Source of the DNA: Saccostrea echinata
Lineage: Eukaryota
Length of the DNA: 64,000 bases
Assembly (NCBI RefSeq): GCF_033153115.1
Contig: NW_026889794.1
Coordinates: forward strand, 3,472,001-3,536,000
Reading direction: 5' to 3'
Shown here: positions 1 to 39,900 of the stretch, in pieces
Position numbering within the stretch: the stretch's first letter is position 1
How the letters are laid out: each line of letters opens with the position of its first letter
Notes under the pieces: model-generated
Databases searched by the model: none
Told to the model about the DNA's origin: nothing
The model's input: the letters and a program-made list of their open reading frames with translations, nothing else
Translations under genes and position numbers: made by a program

Positions 1-63
1 ATTCTTTTTTTTCCCTGACTAGCTGGAAATCATATAGGCTTATATTCTTATATTTCTGTACAC

Positions 64-3000
64 TTATCCAAACCAATGGTTGCCTTGGCAATCTCTGTTC
101 CATTCTTTTTCACACATCCAGCACCAATCAGTCTTGCACACAGTACACGTCATGTGCATACAACCCCCTGTAACAAAGAAACCATTACAAGAATACAAAT
201 AAAAAAATTCTTATATGTGCAAAATACAAAAAACATGGCCATTCCCACTTTTTTTTAATTTACAGAATATATAATGAACAAATAGTGCATTTTGGACCTC
301 AACTGAAAAAGAAACTTTTGGCCTAAAAAATAAAAATGATATTCAAGCTAGATCTAAAGTTATCAAATGTGTACACTGCATTTTGAACTTACTGGGAGAA
401 AAAATTTGATATTTATTTTTTTCCTAGAGATCATCCTTCCTCTATAAGAGTTAACAAAAAATGTCTGTATGTTGATTGCACATTACAGAAAGAAACATAA
501 CTGGTGTAAGCGGGTCTTTGTTTTACAGTGAAGACAACTCTGTCTTTACTTTACACTGAGGACAAGTCTCTCCATCTATTTTTTACACTGAGGACAACTC
601 TCCATCTTTGCTTTAAACTGACAACTCTCCATTCTTGCTTTACACAGAGGACAACACTCCGTCTTTGCTTTAAACTGAGGACAAATCTCTGTCCTTGCTT
701 TACACTGAGGACAACTCTCCATCTTTGCTTTACACTGAGGACAACTTTCCATCTTTGCTTTACACTGAGGACAACTGATTGTCTTTACTTTACACTGGGG
801 ACAACTCTCCATCCTTGCTTTAAACTGAGGACAACTCTCCGTCTTTGCTACACTGAGGACAACTGATTGTCTTTGCTTTCCACTGAGGACAAACCTACCT
901 CATCTTTTCTTTACTTTACCCCCCTTATATGTAGTATAAACCTATCAAAAGACTGTTTTTGTTTTACACACAGACTGTTTTTGTTTTACACTGAGGACAA
1001 CTCTCCATCTTTACTTTACACTGAGGACAACTGATTGTCTTTGCTTTACACAGAGGACAACTCTCCATCAACTCTCCATCTTTGCTTTACAATGAGGACA
1101 ACTGATTGTCTTTGCTTTACACTGAGAACAACTCTCCATCTGTGCTATACACTAAGGATAACTCTCCATCTTTGCTTTACACTGAGAACAACTCTCCATC
1201 TTTGCTTTACACTGAGGACAACTCCCTGTCTTTTCTTTACATTGAGGACAACTCATCATCCTTGCTTTAAACTGAGGACAACTCATCGTATTAACTTTAC
1301 ACTGAAGACAACTCTCCATCTTTGCTTTACAGTGAGGACAAACCTACCTCATCTTTTCTTCACTTTACACTTATATGTAGGATAAACCTATCACTAGACT
1401 GTTTTTGTTTTATACATAGACAAACTTACCTGATCTCTCTGTCTTTGCTTTATACTGAGGACAGGGTTTGGAGATTTTCTCAATGGTTTGCTATATCTTT
1501 GCTACACTGAGGACAACTGATTGTCTTTGCTTTACACTGAGGACAAATCTACCTCATCTTTTCTTTACTTTACACTTTTTTGTAGGATAAACCTATCACT
1601 AGACTGTTTTTGTTTTACACTGAGGACACCTCTCCATCTTTGCTTTACACTGAGTACAACTGATTGTCTTTGCTTTAAACTGAGGACAACTCTCCATCTT
1701 TGCTTTACACTAAGGACAACTATCCATCTTTGCTTTACACTGAGGACAACTGATTGTCTTTGCCTTACACTGAGAACAACTCTCCATCTGTGCTTTACAC
1801 TAAGGACAACTTTGCATCTTTGCTTTACACTGAGGACAGCTCCCAGTCTTTGCTTTAGATTGAGGTCAACTCACTGTATTTGCTTTAAACTGAGCACAAC
1901 TCATTGTATTTACTTTTCACTGAGGACAACTCTCCATCTTTGCTTTACACTAAGGACAAACCTACTTCATCTTTTCTTCACTTTACACTTACATGTAGGA
2001 CAAACCTATTACTAGACTGTTTTTGTTTAACATAAAGACAAACTTACCTGATCTCTCTGTCTTTGCTTTACACTGAGGACAGGGTTTGGAGATTTTCTCA
2101 ATGGTTTCCATAGATTCCAGCTCATATTGAGCTCTAAGAGCTTGCTCAAAGTTTACGTCAATCTCCTTTAAGAAAATATGGAAAAAACATCAGGTACACT
2201 TTGATTCTATTTTGCCCTCAAGTTTAAATATTCCTATAAAACTTTGTAGTAACAATGCCCATACCTACAGAGATCAAAATTAAAGCTCTAAGATTGAGGT
2301 TGAGTACATATATAAGAGAGATATCCATTCTTACAGTATTTCCTGCAGGATACTATATCTAATTCTTTAAAGGTGCTTGGACACAGATTTGAAGTTAATA
2401 CAGGTATTTTCTCAAATTTTCTGTATAATTTCATGACTTATATGTTGCTATAGCATTTCATACTAAAGTATAATAAAATTTTTATTTCATCTCGAAGTTA
2501 TTAAAACTTCGAATTTCTGGACGCGTTAGATTGACACATCATTGCACTTTCACATATTTTAATTTTATTCTTAATACTTAAGAAAAGTGGCAATTTTGTT
2601 GTGTATCAATGAAAAATATTAAAACCATAACCCAGAAAATTCAGCGTAGAATGTTTGAAAGCAAAACCCACTCACAGTATTGTAAGTCCGTGCTCAGTGG
2701 TGTGTGCAGAGTTTAACAATTGAACACACCCGGTGAATTGTAAACATTAACAATAACAGAGCTTGTGCCCTGTTTACAAAAACAGTTTACGTTTCACGGG
2801 TGTGTTCAATTTGTTAAACTCTGTACACATCACAGCGCACGGACTGACAATACTGGTGAGTTGGTTTTGCTTTCAAGCATTTCTACTCTGAATTTTCTGG
2901 ATTATAGATGTAATATTTTTCATTCATACATAACAAAATCGCTTCTTTTCTTAAATATTAAGGATAAAGTTAAAATTTGTGTAAGCGCAAAGATGAGTTA

Positions 3001-6000
3001 ATCAAACGCGTCCCGGAATTCATAGTTCCAATAATTTCCAGATAAAATAAGTTTTTAATTATACTTTCATGTGAAATGCTATTGCAATATATAAGTTGTG
3101 ATATTATACAGAAAATTTGAGAAAATATGAAGTTCAAATCTGTGTCTAAGCACCTCTAAATCATATGATGTGTCTCACAACATACATACATGTCTACGGT
3201 ACAGTGAACAAACTATTATTTGCAATAACTTTTATATGTCAATTTGAAATATCAGCAAAGACTAATTTTCTTGAGGAAACATTCTACACTGTACAATAAT
3301 GAACAATGAAATAAATAATTTGTGACAAGAAATATTCATGAGAAAAGCAAGGTCATGAAACTCACAAATATTTCTAGCATGCAAGAAGTTGGTTTACAGT
3401 ATACTGCATAATACCCAGCAAATGCACACTGAGGTACTTCAACTACCCTAGCCAGACTATCCTCTGCATCTACTAATTTGCATCCCATGCCTGAACATCT
3501 ACATCACTAAGAACATCTAATAAGCTTACCAGGTTTGCTGATGCCTCAGTGAGTTGTGTATTACACTCTTCCCCCGAATGGTAAGCACCTCGACATTCCC
3601 TGCAGAATTCATACTGGAAAACATTAAAAATTACTTCAAATGAGTAAAATAAGCAGAAAAATTTGGCACATCTGCCTAAAAGTATCATTATAAATTGGCT
3701 GAATCATTACTTCAAAAACCTCAAATGGAAAAATTTCACCCTTCTTTTCAATCTTCTTTTCAAAGAAGATTGCTTTGAAAATTACCTTTAAAACTGTAGT
3801 TTTGGAAATGAAAGAACAACATTGTACTACAATTCTTTTAATAGTGTATTTTGAGCTTTAATGGTCAATGTTAACTTACATTACAAGTGGGACATATGAC
3901 TTTGTGGTGCAAGTCTTCAATTAGAAACCCTGCCCCACATCCAGGGGCAGGGCACATTAGTCCCCCACTTTGCAGGAGGTACTCCTCAGCTCCAAAGTTT
4001 TTGTATCTCTCATACTGAAAAAGAACAGTTGCAATTCAAACTGGAAACAGGTTTTAGGGACTGTTAAAATATTTTTTACTTTACATCAATAAAATGAACT
4101 AGATTTACAGCATAAATGTTTCCCCCAGCAGAAAAGTGGCATACTGTGTTTTTCCACATTTGTCTACTTATTACTAAAAAAAAATGAAACAAAAAAAATG
4201 AAACTCAAGTGACTATTTGAAAGCAAGGAATACATGTGTATACCTGCTCAGATCCAAGTACACAAAAGTGATGAGCATCTTTTATCAAAGAGCTGGGACA
4301 TCCAGCTAAAAAGAAACATGAGGTTTAGATAATTGAGACAATTCTCTTACCAGTACTTTAAGGACTTAACGTATAGGTTTGATCAATATATAACTCAGGT
4401 ATTGTCATTCAGATTTTCTAGATTTCTGCCATATGACTTATTTTTAAAAAAAAAAATTAAAAAATAATCTAAATCTTTATGTCAAGGACACCTGGATTTT
4501 TTTACCTGGACAAGGAATACTGTATCCAGCATCTGGATCCTCTACAAATCTCCTCTCATTCAGCTGTATGACACAGTATGATATAAAGCAGTCTAGACAC
4601 ATCACATGTTTCTTAGCACATGGGAAAACCAGAACTGGATGACTGTTATCAGAATAGTTTATTTTGGTTCAATAAGCATGCATGCACTCTTAGTTAATGT
4701 ATATCAAATATGTTAGTTGGGCATACATGTACAATGATATATTTTGCAACAAAAAATGGCAAAAGCAAGAAAAACTTTCAACTTTTAAATAGAAACACCA
4801 AATTTTAAAAATAACAACAAAATCCGGCCTTCCATAAGGTCTGCATACACTGAACCATGTTTTATTGCTTAGTACATAATAAATTTACAGCAAATTAAAA
4901 TCAATTGCTTATTTCTTAAATAAATATTTCATAATATTATTTACATATAAATTAACTAAATCTCATTTCCACCTGCACTGCATTAAAATTACATGTACTC
5001 TGCTCTGTATCCAAAAAATAAAATACTGCCAACATTTTTACACTTAATTATGATGAAAAATTTGATGAATGGAATTATTGATGATTATTTAGAGATGATT
5101 AAAAATTTGACAAGTGGAAATATAAATTATTTCAAGTCATTCATCAATAACAGTTGAGTTTCCACTTTTACAGTATATGCTCAAATGATTTCACAGATAA
5201 AGAGGTACATATACTTATCCTTACAAGGTTTAAAAGCTTTCATATACTTACCTGACATCAGTGCAGGTAATGCATTCTGTGAGGTGCCTGTTGGGTTTAA
5301 AGTGTCTCAGCACGGCACACTGACCTTGTAGTTCATCAAGGTCACCATGATCTATGGTACATTTAAAGTAAAATTTCTGAAAAATAAACAGACATCTTTC
5401 TAGATATACAATCACTATCGTGTTTAATTTTTCTTTGAGTTCTGAAATGTAAATTATGAATACAAAGATAACATTAAAATCAGTTTTTAACTTTCAAAAT
5501 AGTCTGAATTTCAGTCTACCATGACATGATCTTCCATCTTGGTAAATGTGAATCATTTACATGTAATAAGTACGTGTATGTCTTTATAAATTTTAGGTAC
5601 ATCATTCATATAATTTGTTTTGTAAATATGAATCTTTAATTCAACATAGAAAGAGCTCTCCTCTGAATAAGAGAGATAACTCATACACTTACTGCTTCCT
5701 GTTGAGATCCACAATTTTGACAGTCTCCCTGGATTCGGCCTGGATGAAGAACATCATTAAAACTACCAGGTTCCTGTCAGTGAGTAAAACATCAATTTTA
5801 TCATGAGGATATGTTTATATTTTCAATCTTTTCAGGAAGTATTGCCCTGATGCTAAGAATAATATTGAAATTTTGTCCCTTGATTGTCTTCATGGAAAAT
5901 GATAACTGCCCTTTCAATGACTTGAGGAAGAATCATATTGCTCAGTGAGTGAATAGAGAAAAAATATTTTTTCCTGTAAAGTCTGATAAGCAATTTCATT

Positions 6001-9000
6001 TTCATGTAAATTACGTGAATTTGATTTGTCAAGAAACATTTGTTAAAAAACACTGTTACCCTCCAGCTTGATAGAACTTAGCAACAGTCAACATTGCTTG
6101 AAAATGGAAGATATTCCAAAAAAATATTGATGGTACAGAATCTATGTGTGTGCACTTCACCTTTATCTGTATAAAACATTCAGCATAATATAATAAATAC
6201 TGCAGGAAGTTGATGGTATCACTGAAAAATTTCCCCCCTAAAAAGCCATTGTCAACTGAGGCTGCACCTCGATTGACAAAGGTTTTCTTGGGGTGAAATT
6301 TTTGAATGTTACCCTCAACTACATGCAATATTTATATAACGTTACCCTGTGACAGACATCACCAAGAATGATATGTGCCTGACTTAAGGAAACATATTGG
6401 TCTGTAACTGATATATGACCAGATGAAGGATGATATTACCCTATATATGCTTGCTCTGATGAAAAATGAGACTGCCAAACTGAACTGATTAAGGTACTTG
6501 TTTACTCACGATATTTTAACAACAACGGGTCGCCGTAGTTATAAATGTCGTAAATTCAAAGAGTTGTGTGAATGAATAGTTTTGTATTTTAAAACTATAT
6601 GTAAGAGTTACACATTACATATACAACTAATATTTGTGTCTTTCTTATTCTAATATATATAATTTATCGGAAATATACTGTTTACGACATATGCCGTATA
6701 TCAGCGCGGTAAATTGTAAACAATCGTCTGTCATTTAACATCACCGATGCATCATGACACGCTGGAAGAAACATGGTTTCTCAAAGAAAATATCCCAGTA
6801 CAGAAAAAATTCTCAGCTGCTTACGAATCGCTGGGCAGAAAGTAGGATTAATTTAGACCATAATTATGATGTCAATCGATCTACCGAGGATGAGACTGGA
6901 CATGATGACAACATACATGTAATTGTTCCAGAACCGGCAGGTAGCGACGTTCCCGTCTCCTTCAACGACTCAGAAAATTCTAGGTAATGCTTAAGTCTAA
7001 GACCATAAATTATTAGAAACTCTTTTTCTGTAGGTGTGAATACATACATGTAAATCTTTCGGCAAAAATATTGTTGCCTACATAAACACTGATAAAGATC
7101 TAGAGGTCGAGGGATATAATAATCAAATCCATCACCTGTTAATCTGACAATATCAGTGACATGTATCCTCCTCAACTGCTGAATCCTATTCACTTTTAGT
7201 GCATAAATAAAGTATAGTTTAAAATGATATGAACGTATAATGAAAGCTTTGACTGCCAAATATTTTTTTTATTTCTTTATATATGAATTATGATATAGGA
7301 TTATAAGAATGATTCAGTTTAATTGCATGATCAGTGCATAATTGTTATTGATCATTTAACTTAATGCAAACAACACTTTTTCTAAAGATATGACACTGCT
7401 TGGAGAGAAGGAAGAAGGGTGGTTGAGTTAGGGGTGTTAGCAGATGGGCTCTCTGGTTGTGAAGTTTGTGGCATTCCTCTCCATCTTTCTCATACCATGG
7501 GAATACTAACTTGTGGATTAGGTTCATTCCTGAAAGTCCAATGTCAAAACACAACATGTCAGCATGTAAATAAAATAGCAACTGGAAAACGCCATGGAAA
7601 GATATGGGATGCAAATACCAAGCTTGCCACAGGTACATATTTTGTATTTATTTTTCAGTTACAGTACATGTATACATGTATTATAAAAGGACCAGGTTAA
7701 TTTCCTGTCATGAATATATTCTATTTTTCATAAATACATCTGTCAGTGAATTATATATTTTTAGGAATGGTGCATACAGGCATGGGACCTTCTCAGGTGA
7801 ATGCACTTTTAACTTCATTAAATATCCCCCCAATCAGTTCTAGGACACTGCAAAACAGACAAAATGAAACAGGAACAGTTATGGAGAAAATTGCAGTAGA
7901 AAGTACCAGAAGCAGCCTTCATGATGAAATTCAGGCAACTGTAGAGTATGTACATGTAGAAAAACATATCCATTGTAATATGAAAATATTGGTTTTGAAT
8001 ATTTAGGACACTAATTAAAAATATATTTGATATAAATGAAGTTATAATGTGTTTATCAGAATGTAAATGCATAGATGATGTCATTTAGAATCTTAATATT
8101 TCTATTCTCAAATATATTCATCTTTAACATATTACATGTAAGCAGTAAATCCTACCATTTTCAATTAAAGATTTTAAGATAGTTTTCCTAAAGATATACT
8201 GCATAGTAACCTATTATTATATAAAATGCTCATTTTAAGAGATTAACCACAATTAAGGTGGGAAAAACCAACTAGCTTCATGTTTCTGAAAGCTTTCCTG
8301 TGATTTTTAAGGTGTGAAGGTACAGACGAGCTAACAGTAAGTGTTGATGCAGGGTGGCAGAAACGAGGCAGTGGGCGATCCTATGACAGCCTCTCTGGTA
8401 TGTTGTGCATATTTTTTTATACCCCCCGTTTGAAAAGTGGGAGGGTATATAGTGATCGGTATGTCCATCCGTCTGTACATCCATCTGTCTGTACGTCCGT
8501 CTGTTATGCTTTGGGGTACCCATCTCTTATCCACAACTCCTCTTATACCACTGGATGAAATTTAATGAGACTTTCACAGATTCTGTGTTACATAGTGCCA
8601 CTGTGCACCTCCTATTTTACTTTTTGATCGGACACATATTTTGGGTTTCCAAGAGCAAAACATGGACACTGTCATTCTTTTTATAATATTGGAGGGTACC
8701 CATCTCTTATCCAAAACTCCTCCTATACCACTGGATGAAATTTAATGATACTTTCACAGATTCTTTATTACATAATGCCATTGTGCACCTTCTATTTTAC
8801 TTTTTGTTCTGATACTTATTCGGGACTCCCAGAGCAAAACATGGACCTTGCCTTTATAATCATATGGGAGGTGGAGGGGTATCATTTAGTGAGCTCATTG
8901 CTCACAGTACCTTTAGTTTTCTTTTAAAAGGAGTTGGATGTATAACAAAGTAAAACTTCAATTGTTTAAATTATTTTGAATTAGAATTGTTATACCTATT

Positions 9001-11568
9001 TTATACAATATTTATATATTTAAGGAATGTTTTTAAGTTTTGTGTGATTTATTGGTGTGTAAATCACACAGACTTGTCACGTAGGCATATTTCATGAAGC
9101 GTGCTAGCGCTTCATGAAAAATATGCCTACGTGCAAGTCTGTGTGATTTACACACCAATAATTCACACTAAACTTAAAAACATTCCTTGTATTTACATTT
9201 TACATATTCCAAAGCACCAATAATGTACTCAATATTTGAATTTCTTGCTGCCCTATATCGTTACATTTTTATTTACGTCTCTGTAGCCTCATTGTGACGT
9301 CACTTTAGCTCGTGTTTCACCGTGGATATTTCTACGCGTGAGTTTACACAAAAATGACTTTCAAATCAATTTCACAGTTGGCTTAATAGAAAAACATAGC
9401 AAATGTAAATATTTTATAATAAATATATTTCATAACAAACATATTATATACCGGTATATATTTTATAATAAATTCATTCCTTAAATAACTCAATCTGCAT
9501 GACTTTTTATTTGAAACAATATTTTTAGGTCATTGCTCAATGATTGGATCTCAGACAGGCAAAATCATTGACTATGAAATACGAACAAAGTGTTGCAAAA
9601 TTTGTGAGAGTGCTACAAGAAATGGAAAAGACCCCAAAGATCATGACTGCCGAAAAAACTGGGAAGGTACATTGTATTTTATTCTCTGAGAGAGAGAACT
9701 GATCCACCTATCCTTTTCTCTCTATTATTCTCACTTTCATTAATAACTAATCATGATGCAAATGCATGTACTTTAAACTGCTTGAAAGTACTTGTGGAAA
9801 ACAGAGGAAGCAAATTTATTTTGTGAGAGACATGTGAACCAATATATCCCATGAGTATGGTGTCTAGATAGGGCCTTTTACAAAAGCTCACCAGTGATTT
9901 CAGAAAAGCAGGCCTTACAACAACAACACATCAAGTGAACACAACTTCCCACAACACGAAATCACACTTGCACGCAACATGTCATTGCACTCACAGGAAT
10001 TTTAAAAAATATTGTAAAACAACAACATTGAAGAATACATTAACTTGCTTTAATAGTATATACATGTAAATAAAAATGAAAAAGTGAAGTTATGTTTTCA
10101 CACTGTATTTGTTAGAAAAAAATCATGGAAATTCATTTAAAATCATAGCAAAAATTATGTGTAAAAATATCATGATATTATCATGATATTTTTTTAAAAT
10201 CGTGATATATCTTGATATAAAATTTTGGCAATACCCATCTCTAATAACATAGGTAACTCTATTTATCAGATTACTTTTATCTGATAACCCCATACTTGAC
10301 TTTATTTGAGGGAATTCTGCAAAATGATCCATTTAAAATGAGTTGTAGAGTGTATATATTGTAAAATATAAACAGTTCTAGTAGCACATAAAACCTTTAA
10401 CTAGCTACGATAATTTCATCTCAAGCTTAATTGAACTTTTTTTATATAGGAATCTCTAAGGCGATGGAAAAGGATATGGTGGCTAAAATGGTCTCCAGAA
10501 AAGTGGAAGAAGGGGTGAACATAACAAATGTGGTTGCAGATGAGGACACCACTACCTTTTGCCATTTGAGAAACGTCCACAAAAACATTACAAAGATTAG
10601 TGATAAAAACCATATAAGGAAAATTTTCTCTTCAAATTTGTATGGTTTACAATTAAAACACAGATCACTGAGTACTAAAGTTATTCGGTACTTAGTAAAA
10701 TGTTTTAATTCCATGATATCACAAAACAAAGGGAATCCAGTGGGAGTACAGAGAGGGTTGGATGCACTAAGCAGACACCCTTTTGGAGATCACAGTGCTT
10801 GCAATGAATCTTGGTGTTCCCATATCAGCAATCCGAAACAGAAATATTCTGCTTTGCCATATGGGAAACCACTCAAGGACAGCCATCTTCAAGAGTCCCT
10901 TCAACTCATCTGCTCCAAGCTACTGAAGGACACTTCCAAACTTTCAAGATTAGGAAGTACACAAGCAAATGAAGCATTCAACAAATCTGTCTCCCTAAAA
11001 GCTCCTAAGAATCATCACTTTGGTGGATCTGCAAGCCTCAGTTACAGAGTTGCAGCAAGTGTTGCAGAGAAAAATGCAGGGCAGACATATTTGGTTGAGG
11101 TAAGTCATATACATGTATAGTTATGCAGCTGAGTGATGATGACAACTTAAAATTTCATAGATTGAATATTAAGGACACAAGTGAATCAGTGATATATTAT
11201 TTATTTAGCTTTAACATTATAACATCATACTTTTAATAGGTGAACAGAAGAGTTGGTCTCTCTCCAGGAAAACACACCAGGAAATTCTGCTATTTGCGTG
11301 ATTCTCAATCAAGAAAGAGAAAAGCCATCGCAAGAACAAAGAATGCAAAGAGGAAAAGAATGCAACTGAAAGCCAAGAAGTGAGATTTTTAAATTTAAAG
11401 CTGTTATAAGTATTACTCCACCTCCAACCTCTTTGTGGGGCTTGATTGTGTCGAACTACTCAGTCTGTCACATACCTAGAGCTTTACTGTATCATGATTT
11501 TTGTAAGGTGTATATAACAATAGTATTAAATGTTGACAGTAAAAAATTAGTTGTGTAATTCATGCATA

Positions 11569-11651
<83 letters not shown>

Positions 11652-14600
11652 CTTTGCCCTTCTTGATAAGTTTGGAAAATCAATTTAGTTTTGAAGTTTC
11701 AAATAGTTCATTTATTGATATTAAAAATTTTACTGCCTTTATAGATGCCAGACTACAGCCTGTAAAGAGATAAGAGAGGGGCCTACATATCAGTCTGGAG
11801 TTGGAATCTCTGATTCCAATACCGTAGTTGATGAAATTCCACCACCGTCATCTGCACCACAACCACAGAGTTTGTCAACCAAAGACAAAAATTTTGTCGT
11901 CTTTGACCTGGAAACAACAGGACTTGGTATTGAATTCTATTTCTCTAAATTAAATCTTGTACAATTAATTTTAAGGAAAACTTCAGAAAAGTTGTCTAAT
12001 ATATTATAAATCATAAAAGAAAGCCAATGCTGATTTTGGTTAAAAAAAAAAAGGTTAATGAATGCCATTGTTGATTTTGTTATTTTTTTTTTTATTTAAT
12101 GAATGTCAATGCTGATTCTTTTTTATTTCAGCAAGAACATCACACATTCTGCAGGTGGCTGCCATTTGTGGGAAGGAGACATTTTCTTCCTATGTAATGC
12201 CTAAGAAGCAAATTACACCCTCTGCCTCCACAGTTACTGGCCTAAAGCTTGATAATGGAACCCTCTATCACCATGAGAGGAAAGTCAATGCTGTTTCAAT
12301 TTCAAGTGCACTTGGTTCTTTTTTAAGCTTTATTGAGAAGCAAGGCAATGTTATTTTAGTTGGCCACAATGTCAAAAGTTTTGATGTTCATGTTCTTTTT
12401 CATGCTCTAGATTCTTGCTCTCTGTTAGATCGAATGTCAAAATGTGTACAAGGTTTTTTAGATACCAAATTTCTATTCAAACTTGTCCATCCCAATTTGT
12501 GTTCATATAGACAGGAACATTTATCAGAAGTATTGTTAAATTGTACTTACAATGCACATGATGCTGTAGAGGATGTTTCAGCTTTACAAAGGTTATTTGA
12601 CACTGTTCATTTTTGTGATGATGAACATTCATCCTCTACATTTACATTTCAGTATGCTTTGAGTGTCCATAACTACCAGAAGGTTGTAGATAGAAACATT
12701 CCATCCTTAAAATGTTTAATTGATAAAAATGTTTTGAGTGTCAGAATGGCAAGGAAGGTGGCAGATAGTGGCCTAAACTTTGATCATCTCAGATTAGCAC
12801 ATTCTAGAAGTCCTGATGGAATTTATGATCTATTCACTGAGCAGTGTGACAACAAATCTGTCAGAGTTACAAAGTGCAAGAAAATTATTGATATTGTTAC
12901 ACAGTTTTTCATGTCTTTAAATGAAAGTTAAATGTCTGATCATTACATGCATAATCCCTGGAGTGTTGCATTCCTGTCTAACAAACATTGAGGTCATACG
13001 TACAAAATTAATGAAAGAAGATGATTATTAGTTAAATTATATGAACATTTATATTTTGCCTTGAAAATGGATCAAGTTAAGTCATGTAAGAAAAAAAGTA
13101 CATTCTTTCACTTTGTTCATGCAGTAATTCATTTTTAACTTATTAATCATTATATTTATTACATGTAAATTATTAATTTATCTTAACTTAATGTTTTAAA
13201 ATTATTTTAAATTTTATGGAATGTGTTTTTATATATTATGAAATTTTGTATTTACTCTTTCGGTTTTACTATTATTTAAACTGAGAAATATGTGAAAATT
13301 GGAAAAAAGGATAGAGAAAATTCGAAATATTATAATTAAGTTTGTTTCCTTTTTCTTTAAAATGTCAATTTTTACAGTTCAAAGTATCAGACAGGGTGAC
13401 ATGAAAAAGATTTTGTTAAGTACATCAACTTTTTTTATTGTACATCTTAAGGTGAACATAATGAAATATCGTATGAAATTGAAAAAAAAACAGAGGAAAT
13501 TCAGGTTATTTTGTAACAAAATATCGCAATATTTTGATCATTGACACCCACTTTGTAATTTATTTTTATTTCTTTTAGGGTGCTTTATATATGTATAAAT
13601 CAACCATTCAGAGTTATCATCAGTCAAATTTTTAGAATATTTGAATGAAAAAAGGTTCATTTTTATGCATAAAATGTTATAAAACAGAGGAAATTCGAGT
13701 TGCAGAAAATAAAAACGTGATCGATTTTGGAAATGATTTTATGTTATTTTTAAGATAACACTTTAAATAATAAATTCACATGATAAAATGTTTCATTTAT
13801 GTGCTCTCAAAAAAAATATTGTGAAAGATGGAAGTAACCTTTAAAAATTCATATCTACAATGGTGAATTCATGCTATAATTTCATTGGCTAATAGGAAAA
13901 AAAGTAGGTCATTGACCTAGATGTTTTAAAGTGGATTTCGTCAAAACATACATATGTCTTACTAATTCAATTGCTGAGTTTTGATTATCATCAGTGGAAT
14001 TTTTTTTTATTCTGAGTAAACAAGTACCTTAAGTATGATTTCTTTGTGACTGACCTGATGGAGAATAATATTGCCTTGGAGACATTTTCCACACACTACT
14101 CTTAACTTTCCTGGTTGAAGGGCATTACATTTTTTACAGTATACATAAAACTGGTATGGGTGTGCTGAAAAAAAAAATGCAGCATGTAATGTACAATTTA
14201 AAATTCATCAGCACAATGTATAAATGTACAAGTGTACAAACAGTAATAAACTGGATACAGACACTTTTTTTTCCTTTTATGCCTCATGCTCTTCTCTTTG
14301 GTCTGTACTTGATTCATTTAATTAATTATCAATTTGAGAAATGTGACTACATCATGGCTTTAGTCTATTACCAATCATTACATTTTATCTGAAAAATTAT
14401 TTACTGAACAAGAGGACCTGAATAACTTTCACCCCCATGTTCTCCAGAAGATTTTTAAGAGAATTTTATATTCCCATGAAAAATAATGAGCCCATATTAA
14501 AGCCCCACCCTAATTCTAAGGGGTCTCTGATTCCACACTTCTTCAATATCAATATGATTTATGTGGCCTTGCAGTTCTGGAGAAGAAAATTCCTTTCCTG

Positions 14601-16403
14601 TATACATGCATGCATTATTTAAAATTTTATCCAGGTGAGAGGATACTTAAAAATGTTTTCTTTTATAGTCAAATGTAAAACTTTCCCCATTGTGGCTCCA
14701 CCATATCCCCGGGCTATGATTTCAATAATTTGGAATCAACATTATAATTAATTAATAGAAAGTTTTTACATAAGCTTCAACTTTTCAGATTTTAAAAACT
14801 TTTCCCTATTTATTCCATTATATAAATCTTTGGCCCCCTATTGTGGTTCCACCCTTGTGGAGGGGGGGGGGGGGGCAAGATTTAAATAATTTTAGAATCT
14901 ACATAATGTAAGGCAATTTTCACACAACTTTCATCTTTTCTGTAAAACTTTGATCCCAGATTGTGGCCCTATCCTACCCATGGAGGCAATGATTTGAACA
15001 ATCTTGGATCTACACTACCTCAGGATGCTTTCATGTAAGTTTTATTTTTTCTGGTCCAGTGGTTCATGAAAAGATTTTTTAAAGATTTTTTTCTCTTATA
15101 TATTCCCCTGTAAAACATTGATCTCCTATTCTTGCCCAACCTACTCCCAAGGGCCATGATGTGAACAATTTAAATTCTACACTACCCCAGGAACCTTTCA
15201 CATATTACATATATTCACATATTAGGTTTTATCTTTTCTGGCCCAGTGGTTCTTGAGTAGAGGATTTTTTAATGACTCCACCCTATTTTTTGGACAGACA
15301 GGTAATTGGACGGATGCTGGACAATGGGTTATCAGAAAAGCTCACTTGAGCTTTCAGCTCTGTTTAGTCATAATTACAGCATGTCATCTTCAAAACTTTT
15401 AAAACTTTAACACTACACTCACCCAAAACAGCTGCAGTCTGAGAATTGAGCTGGTTCAGGCCAATGCCAGTACTAACTTCTAGCAGTGGTGCCCGTTTTT
15501 GTTGAAAAGCATGTAATGTTGTGTGGTTTCCAAGACCTAGCTCCTAATGCCAGATTAAAAGTTCTCAATAATAAACAGGTTAATAAATCTTTGCAATACA
15601 TCATCAGCAGGGGCTGAAATATACAGTAGCCCGACGCCCGGGGCTAGTCATTTTAAGACTCAGGCTACCTAATTCAAATTTAATGATAGTCTGTTGGACT
15701 AGTAGAATGGAAAAAAAAATTCTCTTCAGTTTACTTTAAATTCACTTTTCTATGTTGACCGATTTCTTTTGAATGAGAACTACATGGTGGTTTAATTTGT
15801 TTCTGTCGATCACCATAGGGTTTGAAACTATAACTTATGTTTTCATTTTGCATAACAAATTATTGGGCTAGTTAGCTTGAGGTTTGGACTAGACACTACT
15901 TCTTTTACTCTGATCAGTAGCCCATGGGCTAGTGGGTTTTCCAAGAAAATTTCAACCCCTGATCAGATAAACATGTAGTGTGTCTAACGTAGAGTTACTG
16001 TATCAATTGAAACCAGATTTATAAATAATATTAGCCCCCAACCTCACCCCTTACCAATAATGTTTTGGAGGGAGACTGAGATGAGTGTAATGTGGGACCT
16101 CTGACACCATATAAATTAACATGGGTTTCTAGTTTAAGTAAGAAAAAAAATTGTATGAGCAATTATAAAGAATGCAAACCCTTCGTAATTTCTTCAGACT
16201 GACACCCTGAGTGTATGACTTACACTAACAGATTGACCATCCTGCAGTAGTTTTCCTGCCAAAATCAGGCGAAGGTCAGCTTTAGGAATCCCTGTCTTGT
16301 TACTTATACAACTTTTTATTTCTCTGACTGACGACTCTCTGCTTACTTCTAATGGACACGATGACGACGAGTTAAATTTTATATTTACTAATATTTTTTC
16401 CAT
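64..16403 (-). CDS. PRKN: Parkin RBR E3 ubiquitin ligase (Ubl-RING0-RING1-IBR-REP-RING2), 11 coding exons, ~418 aa
   Basis: GT-AG exons in consistent phase: 16224-16403 (Ubl [19 protein letters not shown]), 15423-15543, 14055-14164 ([18 protein letters not shown]), 5693-5773, 5252-5376 (FYFKC..CITCTD), 4506-4642 ([15 protein letters not shown]), 4244-4305 ([13 protein letters not shown]), 3880-4014 ([13 protein letters not shown]), 3530-3613 ([10 protein letters not shown]), 2048-2165 (KPCPQC), 64-167 ([18 protein letters not shown]). Total 1257 nt. Confidence 0.95.
525..2040. repeat. 30-bp minisatellite (CTTTGCTTTACACTGAGGACAACTCTCCAT / ...CTGATTGT) with higher-order blocks, in the last parkin intron
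   Basis: Dozens of units. A spacer 'aaacctacctcatcttttct...cactagactgtttttg' recurs near 891, 1341, 1545 and 1958. The unit core is identical to the end of parkin exon 10. Confidence 0.95.
2371..3155. mobile_element. Foldback MITE, Kolobok-like (TTAA target)
   Basis: TTAA|AGGTGCTTGGACACAGATTTGAA ... TTCAAATCTGTGTCTAAGCACCT|CTAA. The whole element is an imperfect inverted repeat centred near 2762. Confidence 0.8.
6188..6338. repeat. Imperfect palindrome (hairpin-type repeat)
   Basis: ataaatactgcaggaagttgatggtatca... pairs with ...tgttaccctcaactacatgcaatatttat around the core tgtcaactgaggctgcacctcgattgaca. Confidence 0.6.
6754..12931 (+). CDS. Kolobok DDE transposase fused to a C-terminal DEDDh (DnaQ/PML-like) exonuclease, 9 exons, ~883 aa
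   Basis: Exons 6754-6983, 7388-7632 (CxxC..CxxxxC), 7765-7945, 8312-8397 ([11 protein letters not shown]), 9529-9666 (CKIC..HDC..NWEG), 10450-11099 (SKAME, VADEDT, SDKNH, STQANE), 11240-11379, 11745-11926 (VFDLETTGL), 12132-12931 ([16 protein letters not shown]). Phases are consistent, total 2652 nt, no stop seen. The first exon is the least certain. Confidence 0.85.
8414..8915 (+). mobile_element. Non-autonomous Helentron-associated element (HINE/pearl-like) in a transposase intron
   Basis: tttttatacccccc...gagggtata subterminal IR, GTCY microsatellite, two ~180-bp tandem units (~8511 and ~8691), 3' hairpin gtgagctcattgctcac. Confidence 0.7.
9022..9188. repeat. Near-perfect ~80-bp-arm palindrome
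   Basis: aaggaatgtttttaagtt...catgaagcg tgctag cgcttcatg...aacttaaaaacattcctt. Confidence 0.85.
11571..11648. repeat. (TA)n microsatellite
   Basis: Direct reading. Confidence 0.98.
14408..15368 (-). mobile_element. HINE/pearl-like element with degenerate internal tandem repeats
   Basis: Starts aacaagagg, carries ~160-170-bp repeated units (ttgtggccc..., tctacactacc...), and ends ggacagacag...aaaagctcacttgagctttcagctc. Confidence 0.6.
15608..15961. mobile_element. MITE with CAGGGG TIRs (hAT-like)
   Basis: CAGGGGCTGAAAT ... ATTTCAACCCCTG, with internal repeated gggctag(t) motifs. TSD not clean. Confidence 0.55.
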
Positions 16404-16861
16404 CTAGAGAATTGGTTTGCTTTATCTCCTTTCATTTTACACAACGTCAATTTTTGTGACAATGCATGACTGATGACTAGAGTCTTTTTATATTATTGTC
16501 TCTTATATATTAAGAAGTCTTCCAACTCCCAAAAAAAAGATGTAAATCAGACAAAATCGATTTGTTACATTGTTGATGAAACTCGTCAAGCTTGAAGCGA
16601 AGGACAGCGATTTTGTCGCTATCCCACTTTCAGTTTGACAAAAATAGTGAATATTACTACGCAGTGGTATGCTATTTAATGAAAGACTGAATATTTCTTC
16701 GGTTCATATTTTGTTTAGTTTGGTGTTATATTACTTTAAATATTTATTTTAATGTGAAACAATAATAAGTTTTCTCATTTTGTTTCAAATAGGACGCACT
16801 ATATACTTATGCGTAAGAAGCTTATTTTTGAGTTCCAAGGTCATAAAGCAAAACATGTGAA
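16404..16861. promoter_or_regulatory. Putative bidirectional promoter between parkin and ISCU
   Basis: Divergent start codons 458 bp apart. TSSs cannot be seen directly. Confidence 0.6.
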
Positions 16862-19800
16862 ATGGCGTTATTTCGTGCAACAACAAGGCTTTTGAAGCCT
16901 TCTTTCGAAGCAAATATAGCATCGACTGTTTCATTTTATCACAAGAATGTAAGTATTGTTAAATTTTAAACCTGATTTATATTACATGTCATTTATTTCG
17001 ATGTACAACATTGTTGATATCCGAATTTCCTCAGATAAGATTTTATTTTTTATTTAGGTGATCGACCATTACGAAAATCCTAGGAATGTTGGTTCCATGG
17101 ACAAGAAGGACAAAAATGTCGGTACTGGTCTTGTAGGGGCTCCCGCATGTGGTGACGTCATGAAGCTTCAAGTAAGGGGAAAAAATGAATGTTACGTAAC
17201 TATAGTTTACTCCAATGGTCGACCTTTACGTTGTACGTTTGTAATGTTATTGGCGAAAAAATTTGGTTGTTATGTTATGTTTCCTATAAATAATGTGTCT
17301 TGTAATACTGAGCCTTAACACAATAATTTAATTTCTTGATGTACATGTGTCGGGTCCAACACAATCTCTTGATTTAGCTGTATACATGTAGCTTGAAATA
17401 GCTATGATAGCTTTATTAAGCTATTCATAATAGCTTGATAAAGCTATTATATGCAGTTTTTTTCAGAAAAATGTTTTTTGTAAGAAATAGAAAAAAGTTG
17501 CAAGCATTTAACTATTCATATATGTACTATGGCCTAGCTACATGTATCAAAACAATGACCAAAATCAAAGATAGTTCTAAGATTGCAGCATTTTAAGCAA
17601 AAGATGAATTTTCATTGTTTGAGTAACCAGTCTAGACGAACTCCAAAAACAGCGTTTCCGGAAGTAAGAAATTGAGACTGAAAAAGACTCCGAAAATAGA
17701 GTCCGCGCATGCGCGCACACACAAAAAATGGCGATTTTTCGGCAAAAATGATGGGTCTACAAAAACTGTCCGTGCAAAGTTTTGGAAAGTATGGCAATTA
17801 TACCAGTACTCAGAAATGCTAAATAAAAGACTTTGGAAGAGATCGTATTTGTCAAATTTTTGATTTTATTTGCAAAAAAGGAGATATTTACTTTCAAAGT
17901 TAACGTTTCATGTCAGATCAATTACAGAGAAAATGATACGTTTTGAGGAGTAAATATGCATAATAATAGGGATATATATGCAAAATGGGACAATATATAT
18001 TGTAACTGTTAAAAACCTGACTGAATTTTGCACATAAATTAGCATTCCGGTTTGTAATTTGTGTACGACATCTGAATTGAACGCTTAAGTTTTTACCATC
18101 GTTATTTACCAATTTTTTTTATCACATACGAACAGATATTATTATGAAAACATTTTTAAACCTATTATCTGTTAATATGAAGACTTTAAAAACCACTCTT
18201 CTAGATATTAAGGGCACAACATGTCTTCTAAAAATGAACTTGTTAATATCTCTGCTCCGTGGTGAAAAATGCGCATTTTCTGATTAAAATAAATACAAGT
18301 TGGGTGTCTTCAAAAACAAATAAAAGCACCCTTATTGTAGGATCGACATAAAATTTAAATCAAGGACACAATAAATTAAATAAGAAAATATTTCTTACCG
18401 GCAATATTGAATTCGATGTCGTATATCCAATTCACTATTATGCAAGAGTTTGAAGCGATAAATAAGTCAATATTCACAAAATAATTTAATAAATGCGATT
18501 ATCCATTCAACAAAAAATAAAATGAAGTAATAATGCACTAAATACACCATTATGCAGCCGTATATTTGGAGAAAGCGAACGACAATCCATCGTTTGTTTA
18601 CATCGGACGCCATTTTGTCGCAATGCATGATGGAGCCAAAGACTTCATTTTCGGAGTTCACGCTGTTTTTGGAGTTCGTCTAGACTGGTAACTGTACTAC
18701 CTTGTGTGTGTTGCGGCATGGATAAGTATTTCTCATTGTACTGAATTTATTTCCAATCAATTTTTTTTTTACCATAATTGGCCTCCTTTATAATTTCCCT
18801 GAAGAAGTAACTGTATCAATTGCTTTATATAGCCCCAAAACTTTTAGAGCTTTGAGTACAAAGTATCTGAAGGAAATGCAATTTGATGAGTGATTTTTAC
18901 ATGCATTATTTTCAGAAGAGTTCAAGGTTGAATATTATCACTGCACCTTACACTGCACTAAGGTGCAACTTTTTGTACATGCTGAGAACACATTTAAGGA
19001 GGCTGGGGGTCAACAAATTAACCACAAATTAACCACCAGATTTAACTTAATATTTTAGATATGTTATCTTAAGCTGTCAACTATCATTTGGCAAAGAAAA
19101 ATTTCAAAAATTTTAGTTTTAAAATTTGATCATTTTCTATATCTTCATATGGAGCTCTTATTCTAAAGGAGATCAATATAGTCTAAAAATGGCCACAACC
19201 CCCCAGCCTCTTTAAGAAAAAAGTGTGATAAAATAGCTAAATTAAGCTATTCTGAATAGCTTAATAAAGCTATATAGCTAAACCAAGAGATTGTGCCGGA
19301 CCTGATGTGTATTTCATAATAAGTACCACTTCCATGAATTCATATGATGATTTTAAGATTGTCTAAAATTATAGATTAAAGTGGATGAAAATGGTAAAAT
19401 CATTGATGCCAAATTCAAAACTTTTGGATGTGGGTCAGCAATTGCCTCCAGCTCATTGGCCACAGAATGGATCAAAGGAAAAAAGGTATGATTTTCCTCC
19501 TTTTGTTTACAGGTAAGGGAGAAAATGGATAATGCATGCGGGGCCTGGAGGTAAACCCTCTTTGACTTGAGCATTAGATACAAAAATATAATCTGTTCTC
19601 AGCATAAACAAAATTGTTATTGAAAATTCATGGTATGTACAACATGTACATGTACCTGGGACAGACCATCTGTCGGTAATCTAGAAAAGAAATATTTACC
19701 AAAAGTTCATCAAATCCTCTTTACAAAGCACTGTTTAGCTATGTCTGTAAACACTTGTTATAATTTCAATTGTAATATGAAAAGTTATCATTTTACATTT

Positions 19801-24079: not shown

Positions 24080-24707
24080 GTATCAAACTCCAAGGTCAAA
24101 GGATCAAAATAAATGGTACGCAAAGGGAAGATCTTGTCTTAGTCAAAAGAAATACACATGCAAAATATAAAAGCCCTAGCACCAACCGTTCAAAAGTTAA
24201 GACAAAGGTTAAAGTTTTCAAAATTAGGTCAAACTTCAAGGTCAAAATTGTTGATATCCAAAGAAAGGTCTTGTCACAAGGAATATACCTGTGAAATTTG
24301 AAAGCCCTAGTTTTAACTGTTCAAAAGTTATGGCCAAGGTTATTTTTTTTTAAAGTGGGTCAAACTCTAAGGTCAAGGTCAAAAATATTTAAACCCATGG
24401 AAAGGTTTTGTCACGATAAATACATATGTGAAATTTGAAAGCTCTAGCACCAACTGTTCAAAAGTTATGGCCAAGGTTAAAGTTTGGTAAATTTTTGCAA
24501 AGGTGGGTCAAACTCAAAGGTCAAGAGATCAAATATGTTGGTACCCAAAGGAAGGTCCTGTCACATGGAATACACATGTGAAATATGAAAGTCATAGCTC
24601 CAACCAATCAAAAGTTATAGGCAATGTTAAAGTTTTTGCGGACAAACAGACAAACGGACTGGGCAAAAACTATATGCTCCCGAATCTTCGATGACAGGGC
24701 CATAAAA
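24080..24707 (-). mobile_element. HINE-like element with ~130-150-bp tandem units
   Basis: Repeated ggtcaaact..aaggtcaa..aaagttatggccaaggtt units, ending ggacaaacagacaaacggac..gggccataaaaa. Confidence 0.6.
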
Positions 24708-36900: not shown

Positions 36901-39900
36901 GCATAACTTTGAAATGTGCCTTCAAGTTTAAGACACTTATCTGCCAAAAAAAAGTAGAGTGGAGGAGGTAACTGATCTACAGAAAGAGAGGGAGAGGGTA
37001 TGGGGGGGGGGGGAGGTAGAGAGTAAGATGAGAAATGCCTTTCCTTAGATCATGCATCCAGATGCTCCTCTTTTTCAACACAGATCACAGCACATTAATA
37101 TTCGTGAATAGTTTAGTGAATATAAAAAGAAAATTCACTTCAAATGGATAAAATTTTGTACCTTTTTCCTTCACAAACTAATTTTCTTCATCATGGTATG
37201 CCAAAATCTCAAACCAAACATAATACCAGAATTTCTATATTACATCAACAATACTGAAAGGGTATCAACCAGCATACTAAATTACAGTCGCATTGAAGTA
37301 AATAATGACACTATCATACACAGTCTGATTTCTAGAGTATTTGAAGTTGCTGTATAAGAATGAAGTTGCTGTATAACAATGAAGTTGCTGTATTAGACCT
37401 GTTTCAGCTGGTGGTACATGTTCTGGTTACATATACTTTACATATCAAATTATTCGGTGATTATGTAAATCATCATCAACAGGTCTCCTACATTTAAAAA
37501 ATTTGTTCTCCAAAAGTACAACTGCATACAATTCTGTTATCTTTGGTGAAAAAGACTTTAGAATTCACACTGATGTCTAGATTTTTCACTTCTGAAAAGT
37601 GAGTGACTTGAGAATCAAAATGTTGGAAAAACTAATTGACAAAGGCCTATCTCAAAGTTTCCTCCTGATGCACACACATCAGTCAAACTTGTGGCAATTT
37701 CATTGGATTTAAGTTTAATTCTAGGATAAAATCACTTGTGTTCTTCTGTGTACTACCATTCAGGTGGTTCTTTGTAATAACAATATTATTTCATAAGTGG
37801 TTCCTTCATCCTAGCAAATTGTTTAGTCACAGTGATAATCAAGTAATCTTTGATTTAAAAGACACATTATACATGTACATATACGAGTGTTTGTTCTTTG
37901 CTTTTATCATATACTAAATGTGTTATTCACAAAATGTTTTCACCATGGCGAGTGAAGTATCTGTTGATGGCGACCAGATATTCTAAAACGGTGACCAAAA
38001 AAAAAATTTGGGTCGCCATTTAACAACTTAATAGTGTGACTTGAGCACTGATCATAATATGCCAAAATCTCAAACCAAACATGATAGAATTTCTATATTA
38101 CATCAGCTATACTGAGAGGGTATCCATCAGCTTACTTTATCAAAAACAATGAACAAAATCCAATTTTGACATCTATCCATTTCCTCCGCAGATGTAAATT
38201 ACAGTCACATTGAACTAAATAATGACACTATCATACACAGTCTGATTTCTAGAGTATTTGAAGTTGCTGTATAACAATGAAGTTGCTGTATAACAATGAA
38301 GTTGCTGTATAGCAATGAAGTTGCTGTATTAGACCTGTTTCAGCTGGTGGTACATGTTCTGGTTACATATACTTTACATATCAAATTATTCGGTGATTAT
38401 GTAAATCATCATCAACAGGTCTCGTACATTTAAAAAAATTGTTCTCCAAAAGTACAACTGCGTACAATTCTGTTATCCTTGGTGAATAAGACTTTAGAAT
38501 TCACACTGATTTTTAGAATTTGCACTTCTAAAAGGGAGTGTCTTGAGAATCAAAATGTTGGAAAAACTAATTGTTTGCATGGTACTTGAGTGTTCTTTCC
38601 ATATGTAAATGTTACACATATCCTCACACAAATTTAGTCCTGTCTTTGTGAACTTCTAGAAAATTGTAGCCAAAATGTTTAGCAAATTGTAGCCAACATA
38701 TTCTTGCATTAAACAAAATCATTTACAGTTAGATATGCCCTTCGATTCCTAAAAGAACCCTAGCTGAACTCTTCATAAAATCCCATCCAAACCCCTATCA
38801 CCAGAATTCATTCTCATATATTCTAAAAATATTCAAGCTGAGCACTTCAACAGACAGGCCAAAGGCCCCTTGATCTTGTGACCCCAATAGTAATACCTCA
38901 GAATTCTTCATTTATCCAAAGTGTAAACCCAAACCATTCTCATGTTTTTTTAGACAAAGGCTAAGTAAGCTTTCTTTTTGTTCCCGTGTGACTAACCTTT
39001 CTTGACTGATTAAGCCTGTTTGCTCTTAGTGCTGAGGGAACCACCATCCTCTTTTGTTTATCGTATGGGGGTGGGATTCCTTCAAACACCTTCAGGCGCT
39101 CCAAAGCCTCTGCACCACGGCTTGTCTTGTGAGGGACCATACCTACAACACAGCTGTATTAATTAACTCCTTCATATCACTCAGACAAAACAAAATCACC
39201 CAATACCTAACAGTATAATGATTTCATCTCAGTTTTTTGGGGGGTTGGATTCTTTACACTGTTTTGGTTTATTGAACTGATCAGAATTTATTTTACTTCA
39301 GTGGATTACATCAGTGTAGGTAAGGTTTTCTCATCATATCAGTCCAGTTTAAACAAAAACCATGTTAAACTTTCACACGAAATGGATTGTTTTAATATCA
39401 TTCATTCTATCATGTACAGCATTACTTAGACATACCTCTAACAGCCTTGTAGAACATTTTACTGGGAGCCCTGAAGTGGAAAGGTCCTCTTGTTGGCTTA
39501 ACATTGCAACGTAATCGTAGGTATTTCAAGACCTTTACTGTTAAAATATAAGGAACATAACATGTGTGAAAGCTAAGAAAAGCAACATTTAACAAATGTA
39601 TGAATATGGTGTTATTTTTCTAATTTCAGGTCTATTTAAGTTTCAATTAAAATTGTCATACTTTCTGCAAAACTTTAGATATTTTTTTTTTTTATTTCTA
39701 CCTAAATGTATTGGTTCAATTAACTTTGTAAATGGATTTAAACTGAGTACTGTGTTAGTCTTTCAGCAATCAAGATTCTGAAAGTTAATGACTTTTTAAT
39801 GCATCTTTTTTACTACAGTTATTTGATTTAATAAGATATTTCAGAATGCAAAAGAAACAACCCTTCCAATACAAAATTCTAGAATGAATGTATATAGGCG

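Follow-up and report, generated by a model that had tools for sequence, protein, structure and literature searches.

The last intron of the parkin gene of the oyster Saccostrea echinata contains a tandem repeat whose unit reads like the end of the exon before it, which raises the question of where this repeat came from and whether it alters the parkin transcript or protein. The analysis covers a stretch of 64,000 nt (contig NW_026889794.1, positions 3,472,001 to 3,536,000), which we call the window and to which all coordinates below refer. We propose, with high confidence, that the repeat is an exon-10-derived minisatellite that likely arose from short-repeat slippage across the exon-intron boundary, and that it is likely neutral and spliced out. 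As judged by listings, no published account of this parkin locus was found in the open-access literature.

The host gene was located by tblastn on the minus strand at 64-16403, where it has 11 exons. With exact borders the spliced model is 1257 nt long and encodes 418 aa with a single terminal stop, identical at 418/418 positions to XP_061193571.1 (P0007, Saccostrea echinata), at 333/371 to the relative protein P0001 and at 306-312/417 to the parkins of Crassostrea and Magallana. It is an open reading frame with the Ubl-RING0-RING1-IBR-RING2 order of the RBR E3 ligase parkin, the domain scan having been done on the relatives P0001 and P0003, and exon 10 matched parkin PDB chains. Exon 10 (118 nt; 2048-2165, minus strand), placed by tblastn, the spliced model and contigs from sequencing runs X1, X5 and X6, has the first CxxC of RING2 (Cys374/Cys377) at its end, with the true donor following at 2048. 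The last coding exon, exon 11 (64-167, minus strand), holds Cys387 at the catalytic position together with the rest of RING2. We assign the role of Cys387 by its spacing relative to fly and human RING2 (PMC3709501): the Cys374/Cys377/Cys387 spacing equals that of fly C436/C439/C449, of which C449 (human C431) is described as catalytic in the available part of that source, where RING2 zinc site I is said also to require two later cysteines. Intron 10 (1880 nt; 168-2047, minus strand) contains the whole array. As a separate observation, parkin intron 3 (5774-14054) is 8281 nt long, far above the other introns of the gene (200-1880 nt).

The minisatellite occupies 515-1958 on the minus strand and consists of 39 donor-less units with a 30-nt period, arranged in runs that are interrupted by spacer blocks and an exon copy. 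TRF reports 515-1959 with a period of 30, 66% matches and 48.8 nominal copies, a count that exceeds 39 because the program takes spacer blocks as units. Searches with the 22-nt core at up to 3 mismatches gave 36 matches, all inside 515-2081, compared with 0 in 100 shuffles, and segmentation gave 41 core anchors, namely exon 10, the exon copy and the 39 units. Unit scoring was confined to the 30 regular 30-mers, with the 9 irregular units omitted. Their consensus is identical to the end of exon 10 across the 22-nt core and at 27/30 positions overall, which bears out the claim of the first-pass annotation that the 30-bp unit matches the end of exon 10 with the first CxxC of RING2; individual regular units are identical to the exon at 22-27/30 positions. 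The 30-mer carries no donor, and the first unit is separated from exon 10 by 89 nt of intron. In-frame stops occur in 6/30 regular units, while 18/30 keep CxxC without a stop. The poly-CxxC run reported for the ORF at 576-812 is likewise present: on the minus strand the frame is open for 78 codons (78 aa) in the distal run, and 6 of its 8 units keep CxxC. Pfam searches of two array frames returned Extensin_1 as the sole match, below cutoff, which we rejected as a repeat-composition artefact, and Rfam gave 0 matches over 1-17000.

The units are themselves part of a larger repeat. Module A (1490-2107, minus strand) comprises the exon end, the donor, the intron start, 11 units, a chimeric spacer and 2 units, and module B (834-1489, minus strand) is its tandem copy, with 553/618 aligned columns identical (exon 59/60, intron start 81/89, first five units 131/150). 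The final 60 nt of exon 10 recur at 1430-1489 (minus strand), with a difference from 2048-2107 at a single position, the second Cys being changed to Tyr; this copy is followed after 1430 by the same donor, 618 nt from the true one and with the same score (13.3), and an in-frame TAG at 1491-1493 lies directly upstream of it. The first-pass annotation had described such a copy, with its donor and its Cys-to-Tyr change, as a 60-nt piece 618 bp away; the copy itself stands, but it is not isolated, as it heads the whole 618-nt duplication. This segmental duplication has a breakpoint inside exon 10, and the second donor is therefore its by-product. Four decayed copies of the exon end plus donor, absent from that annotation, supplement the intact one to give five extra donor-like copies. 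They are situated on the minus strand at 1955-1989 (29/35 identical, score 39, the probable seed event), 1542-1576 (30/35), 1337-1371 (30/35) and 888-919 (28/32), and score 39-43, where the null reached at most 30 over 3084 windows; the junction-specific 20 nt of the four spacers score 24-28 against a null maximum of 20 (3084 windows). Their donors score 4.0-7.1, and only the donor at 1430 matches the true one. Each of the four spacer blocks consists of the intron start and a decayed copy of the exon end and donor, and two of them (1628 and 999) start as unit-intron chimeras. The array is thus built in three tiers: the donor-less 30-mer, the spacer block and the 618-nt tandem module.

Transcript evidence bears on whether any of this affects splicing. 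Twelve sequencing runs were listed, all of them as contigs and none recorded as RNA; four were aligned to 1960-2356, the best run of the twelve sharing 0.18 of words, and 515-1959 was covered only through X1 contigs that overlap 1960-2356. X1 gives no cover at 2167-2356, to which we attach no weight. Runs X1, X5 and X6 were taken as RNA solely because their contigs are spliced. In each of these, representing three studies, a contig joins exons 9, 10 and 11 via the first donor at 2048 (3/3), with exon 10 free of differences. The proposal that the array or the second donor acts as a splicing decoy finds no backing in these contigs, which show the first donor only; contigs drop rare variants, so that this result describes the major form. 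Because the assembled transcripts splice the array out from the first donor, we regard it as likely neutral. X1 also has contigs from intron 10, with depths of 3.5 and 4.9 against 10.3 for the spliced X1 contig, and these may be pre-mRNA, DNA or intron retention. The share of words was 0.12-0.18 for X1-X4 and 0.10 for X6-X9. Two donor-like sites occur on the minus strand in the intron start, one at 2006 (score 4.1), which would add 14 stop-free in-frame codons between exons 10 and 11, and one at 1993 (score 10.9), which is out of frame; use of either is unseen in the contigs.

An alternative that we consider improbable is that the last intron is spliced less efficiently because of the duplicated donor or the purine-rich array, giving a regulated non-productive isoform, with copy number tuning the dose of parkin. 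Such an isoform would come from retention or from use of the second donor, would stop after 19 codons and would lack Cys387. The equal scores of the two donors and the presence of intron-10 contigs in X1 are in keeping with it, and human 6-16 and CBS use proximal pseudo-donors according to the available part of PMC1557585. However, a contig in which the copy is spliced to exon 11 was not found. X1 record 2 stops within the copied exon, at 1441, and the donor in all three spliced contigs is 2048. The second donor is situated 618 nt downstream, and the F7 data favour the upstream site; the intronic X1 contigs may be pre-mRNA or DNA. We give equally little credence to a broader version, a copy-number-dependent poison switch on parkin in which second-donor use or intron retention drops the catalytic cysteine, or a minor cassette adds CxxC. 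If true, the length of a young lineage-specific minisatellite would set mitophagy capacity in this oyster.

Less probable still is the inclusion of some of the array in the transcript as a cassette exon, which would place extra CxxC knuckles between Cys377 and Cys387, as the first-pass annotation had envisaged for some isoforms. The length of the unit is a multiple of 3, those 18/30 units keep CxxC without a stop, and some human genes keep boundary repeats in alternative transcripts, as described in the available part of PMC2812944. Across intron 10 there are 336 stop-free in-frame AG/GT pairs, of which 20 have both sites at least as strong as the weakest real sites of the gene, but 0 reach its median real site at both ends. 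The splice-site model was built on just 10 donors and 10 acceptors, and rare cassettes are therefore still conceivable. For an exon ending at the second donor (1430), 20 of 74 upstream AGs would give an in-frame length and 0/74 are both in-frame and stop-free, while read-through past the first donor meets a stop after 19 codons for any donor beyond 1990. These three results, namely the 19-codon stop, the 0/74 acceptors and the 0/336 cassettes at median strength, count against isoforms with extra knuckles. A protein-coding repeat or exonised poly-CxxC would show purifying selection and a spliced stop-free frame, and neither was found. Synonymous core changes make up 4/24 distinct changes against an expected share of 0.185 (P 0.67, with the units non-independent), and the repeat units evolve without coding constraint. 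No contig contains such a cassette, it is absent from the NCBI model, and there is no support for the ORF at 576-812 as an exon. An insert would probably compromise the fold, because the cysteines of RING2 site I come from both exons. Notwithstanding the indels, the array returns to the frame of the exon at 1958, 1463, 1340 and 803, which we read as coincidence because that frame is blocked by stops.

The derivation of the minisatellite from the end of parkin's own exon 10 is well supported. Every oyster protein retrieved has the exon peptide in conserved form, which makes the exon the template, and exon 10 alone of the gene's 10 exon ends has an echo in its own intron (local score 46 versus 14-20). 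Together with the identity between unit and exon, this upholds the proposal that the array was born from parkin coding sequence. Gene conversion between exon and intron, also suggested previously, is not supported: the exon core is unchanged compared with a related oyster, and the 59/60 identity of the copy is within neutral expectation (1 change versus 3.4 expected, P 0.15, not significant). Oyster genomes are rich in repeats, and one might accordingly take the unit for a dispersed oyster satellite or a transposon fragment, which either came to this site by insertion or is like the exon by coincidence. We find this hard to credit, given the 27/30 identity to an exon only 89 nt away, the junction-specific donor copies and the 59/60 exon copy within the same array, and the lack of any copy in the other 62 kb of the window, where blastn-short with 515-2107 against 2201-64000 returned only one 14-nt match (E 0.31). 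The core was found in 0/74 metagenome loci of RBR-like relatives, an uninformative comparison as the best identity was 72% and none was recognisably oyster parkin.

X1 record 2, a contig of 268 nt, agrees with 1441-1708 in its length, in the letters at the junction and in the differences listed, and it includes both the module junction and the Tyr change of the exon copy; X1 record 1 matches 1930-2009. A match of this kind by a short-read contig means that 1441-1708 is no assembly artefact, and the array, for which an artefact had been named as a possible refutation, is real on this check, the distal part (515-1440) lying outside the cover. That the higher-order structure is an assembly artefact is scarcely believable, even though the best run shares only 0.18 of words, given these two matches in X1, which may itself derive from the assembled animal, and the 10% divergence of the modules, which is more than false duplication from accurate reads would give.

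The related oyster (organism C, run X10) serves as a partial outgroup for the birth of the minisatellite. It is letter-identical to the window over 2046-2081 and carries the Q-to-R change of P0001, whereas the window itself equals P0007. The ancestral intron start (1985-2047, minus strand) can be aligned in this oyster down to 1985 (X10 record 4, covering 1985-2075 with 7 other letters and 11 gap letters). No unit or exon-like piece aligned in the 161 unlike nt past 1985, although units of 24-29 nt did align for X1. The motif CPQCK is also absent from the read-through peptides of other oysters past the exon-end SG, over 44 codons in P0002 and 98-117 codons in P0005 and P0027-30, in one frame only. 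The X10 alignment, which involves a single haplotype, suggests that the array arose after the split from the related oyster. Position 1985 is also the end of a 5-mer common to exon and intron, and this 5-mer was probably the seed. The loose end of the related oyster, of which 30 letters are visible, ends like the decayed copy, so the seed step may predate the species split. Furthermore, the exon core and nt 8-31 of the intron are already alike at 19/25 positions, a score equalled in 2/3084 windows, and a different seed is therefore possible.

Returning to the origin from exon 10, slippage or template switching is a plausible route, and we infer the following order of steps from one haplotype. 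Initially, slippage or a template switch would have paired AGTGT in the exon (2070-2074) with the same 5-mer in the intron (1985-1989), so that the exon end and donor were copied 85 nt downstream. A second slip, between TGTC after the donor and TGTC in the exon, would then have removed about 11 nt including the donor to leave the 30-mer. Unequal exchange may have amplified the 30-mer and created the chimeric spacers, the last event probably being duplication of 618 nt from the breakpoint inside exon 10. In the transcript the most upstream donor would win, as for human F7, and any transcript spliced from the second donor would be non-productive, its reading frame terminating ahead of Cys387.

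Among known systems the closest appear to be the amphioxus mirages in Adh3, BflGb6 and BflGb9, which the available part of PMC3087553 describes as tandem duplications of exon-intron boundaries with splicing intact and with demonstrated length instability. In both cases a gene's own exon-intron boundary is tandemly duplicated into the intron, splice signals persist in many of the units, though not in every one, and normal splicing proceeds unaffected, in the oyster as seen for the major form in the X1, X5 and X6 contigs. BflGb9 has a single duplicate of an exon 3' boundary, like the 618-nt module, as far as that part of the source goes. However, the oyster 30-mer consists of exon sequence alone, has no donor, starts at a distance of 89 nt from the exon and forms part of a larger module that spans the boundary; duplication across the boundary is seen in the 618-nt module and the four decayed copies, but not in the 30-mer alone.

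Minisatellites that reiterate a donor are described for human F7, 6-16, CBS, LAMIN B2 and PDGF in the available part of PMC1557585, with upstream preference shown for F7. The 37-bp VNTR of F7 IVS7 resembles the oyster array in having a sequence-identical donor downstream of the true one and in use of the most upstream donor, which the oyster contigs show in three studies. As that source describes F7, all of its monomers carry the donor and the array begins with one that straddles the boundary. In F7-type arrays a pseudo-donor can also take over once the true donor is lost. In the oyster none of the 39 monomers has a donor; the extra donors are an intact one at a distance of 618 nt and four that have decayed. 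Only the donor at 1430 matches the true one, and 89 nt of intron lie between exon and array. Since the 30-mer lacks a donor and does not cross the boundary, it falls outside the F7 definition.

Models that derive minisatellites from short repeats, whether flanking or non-contiguous (Haber and Louis; Taylor and Breden, as summarised in the available part of PMC3389668) share with our proposal the short common words (5-nt and 4-nt) at the inferred breakpoints. The models set a length of 5-10 bp, of which the 5-mer is the lower limit and which the 4-mer does not reach, and here the ancestral state is partly visible. Internal tandem repeats of human duplicated genes also have exon-like sequence at exon boundaries and, in the available part of PMC2812944, often alter splicing or protein, whereas no such change is seen in oyster parkin.

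The locus provides a bivalve example of a repeat type already described in human and amphioxus, in which the template survives next to the probable seed copy, the monomer without donor and the late 618-nt duplication, as a record of minisatellite birth. Its two identical donors 618 nt apart form a natural experiment on whether a mollusc prefers the first donor. The array would matter more only if parkin isoforms were measurably changed, and nothing here shows such a change.

Other repeats occur in the window. Within parkin intron 9, 2341-3180 forms a long imperfect, MITE-like palindrome (81% over 806 nt against its own reverse complement), with no second copy in the window. A tandem repeat of 137-150 nt with a TCAAGG motif lies at 24136-24636 and presumably resembles the Helitron-associated repeats of bivalves. 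Finally, one 19-nt unit forms two short arrays at 37342-37397 and 38259-38329, about 0.9 kb apart.
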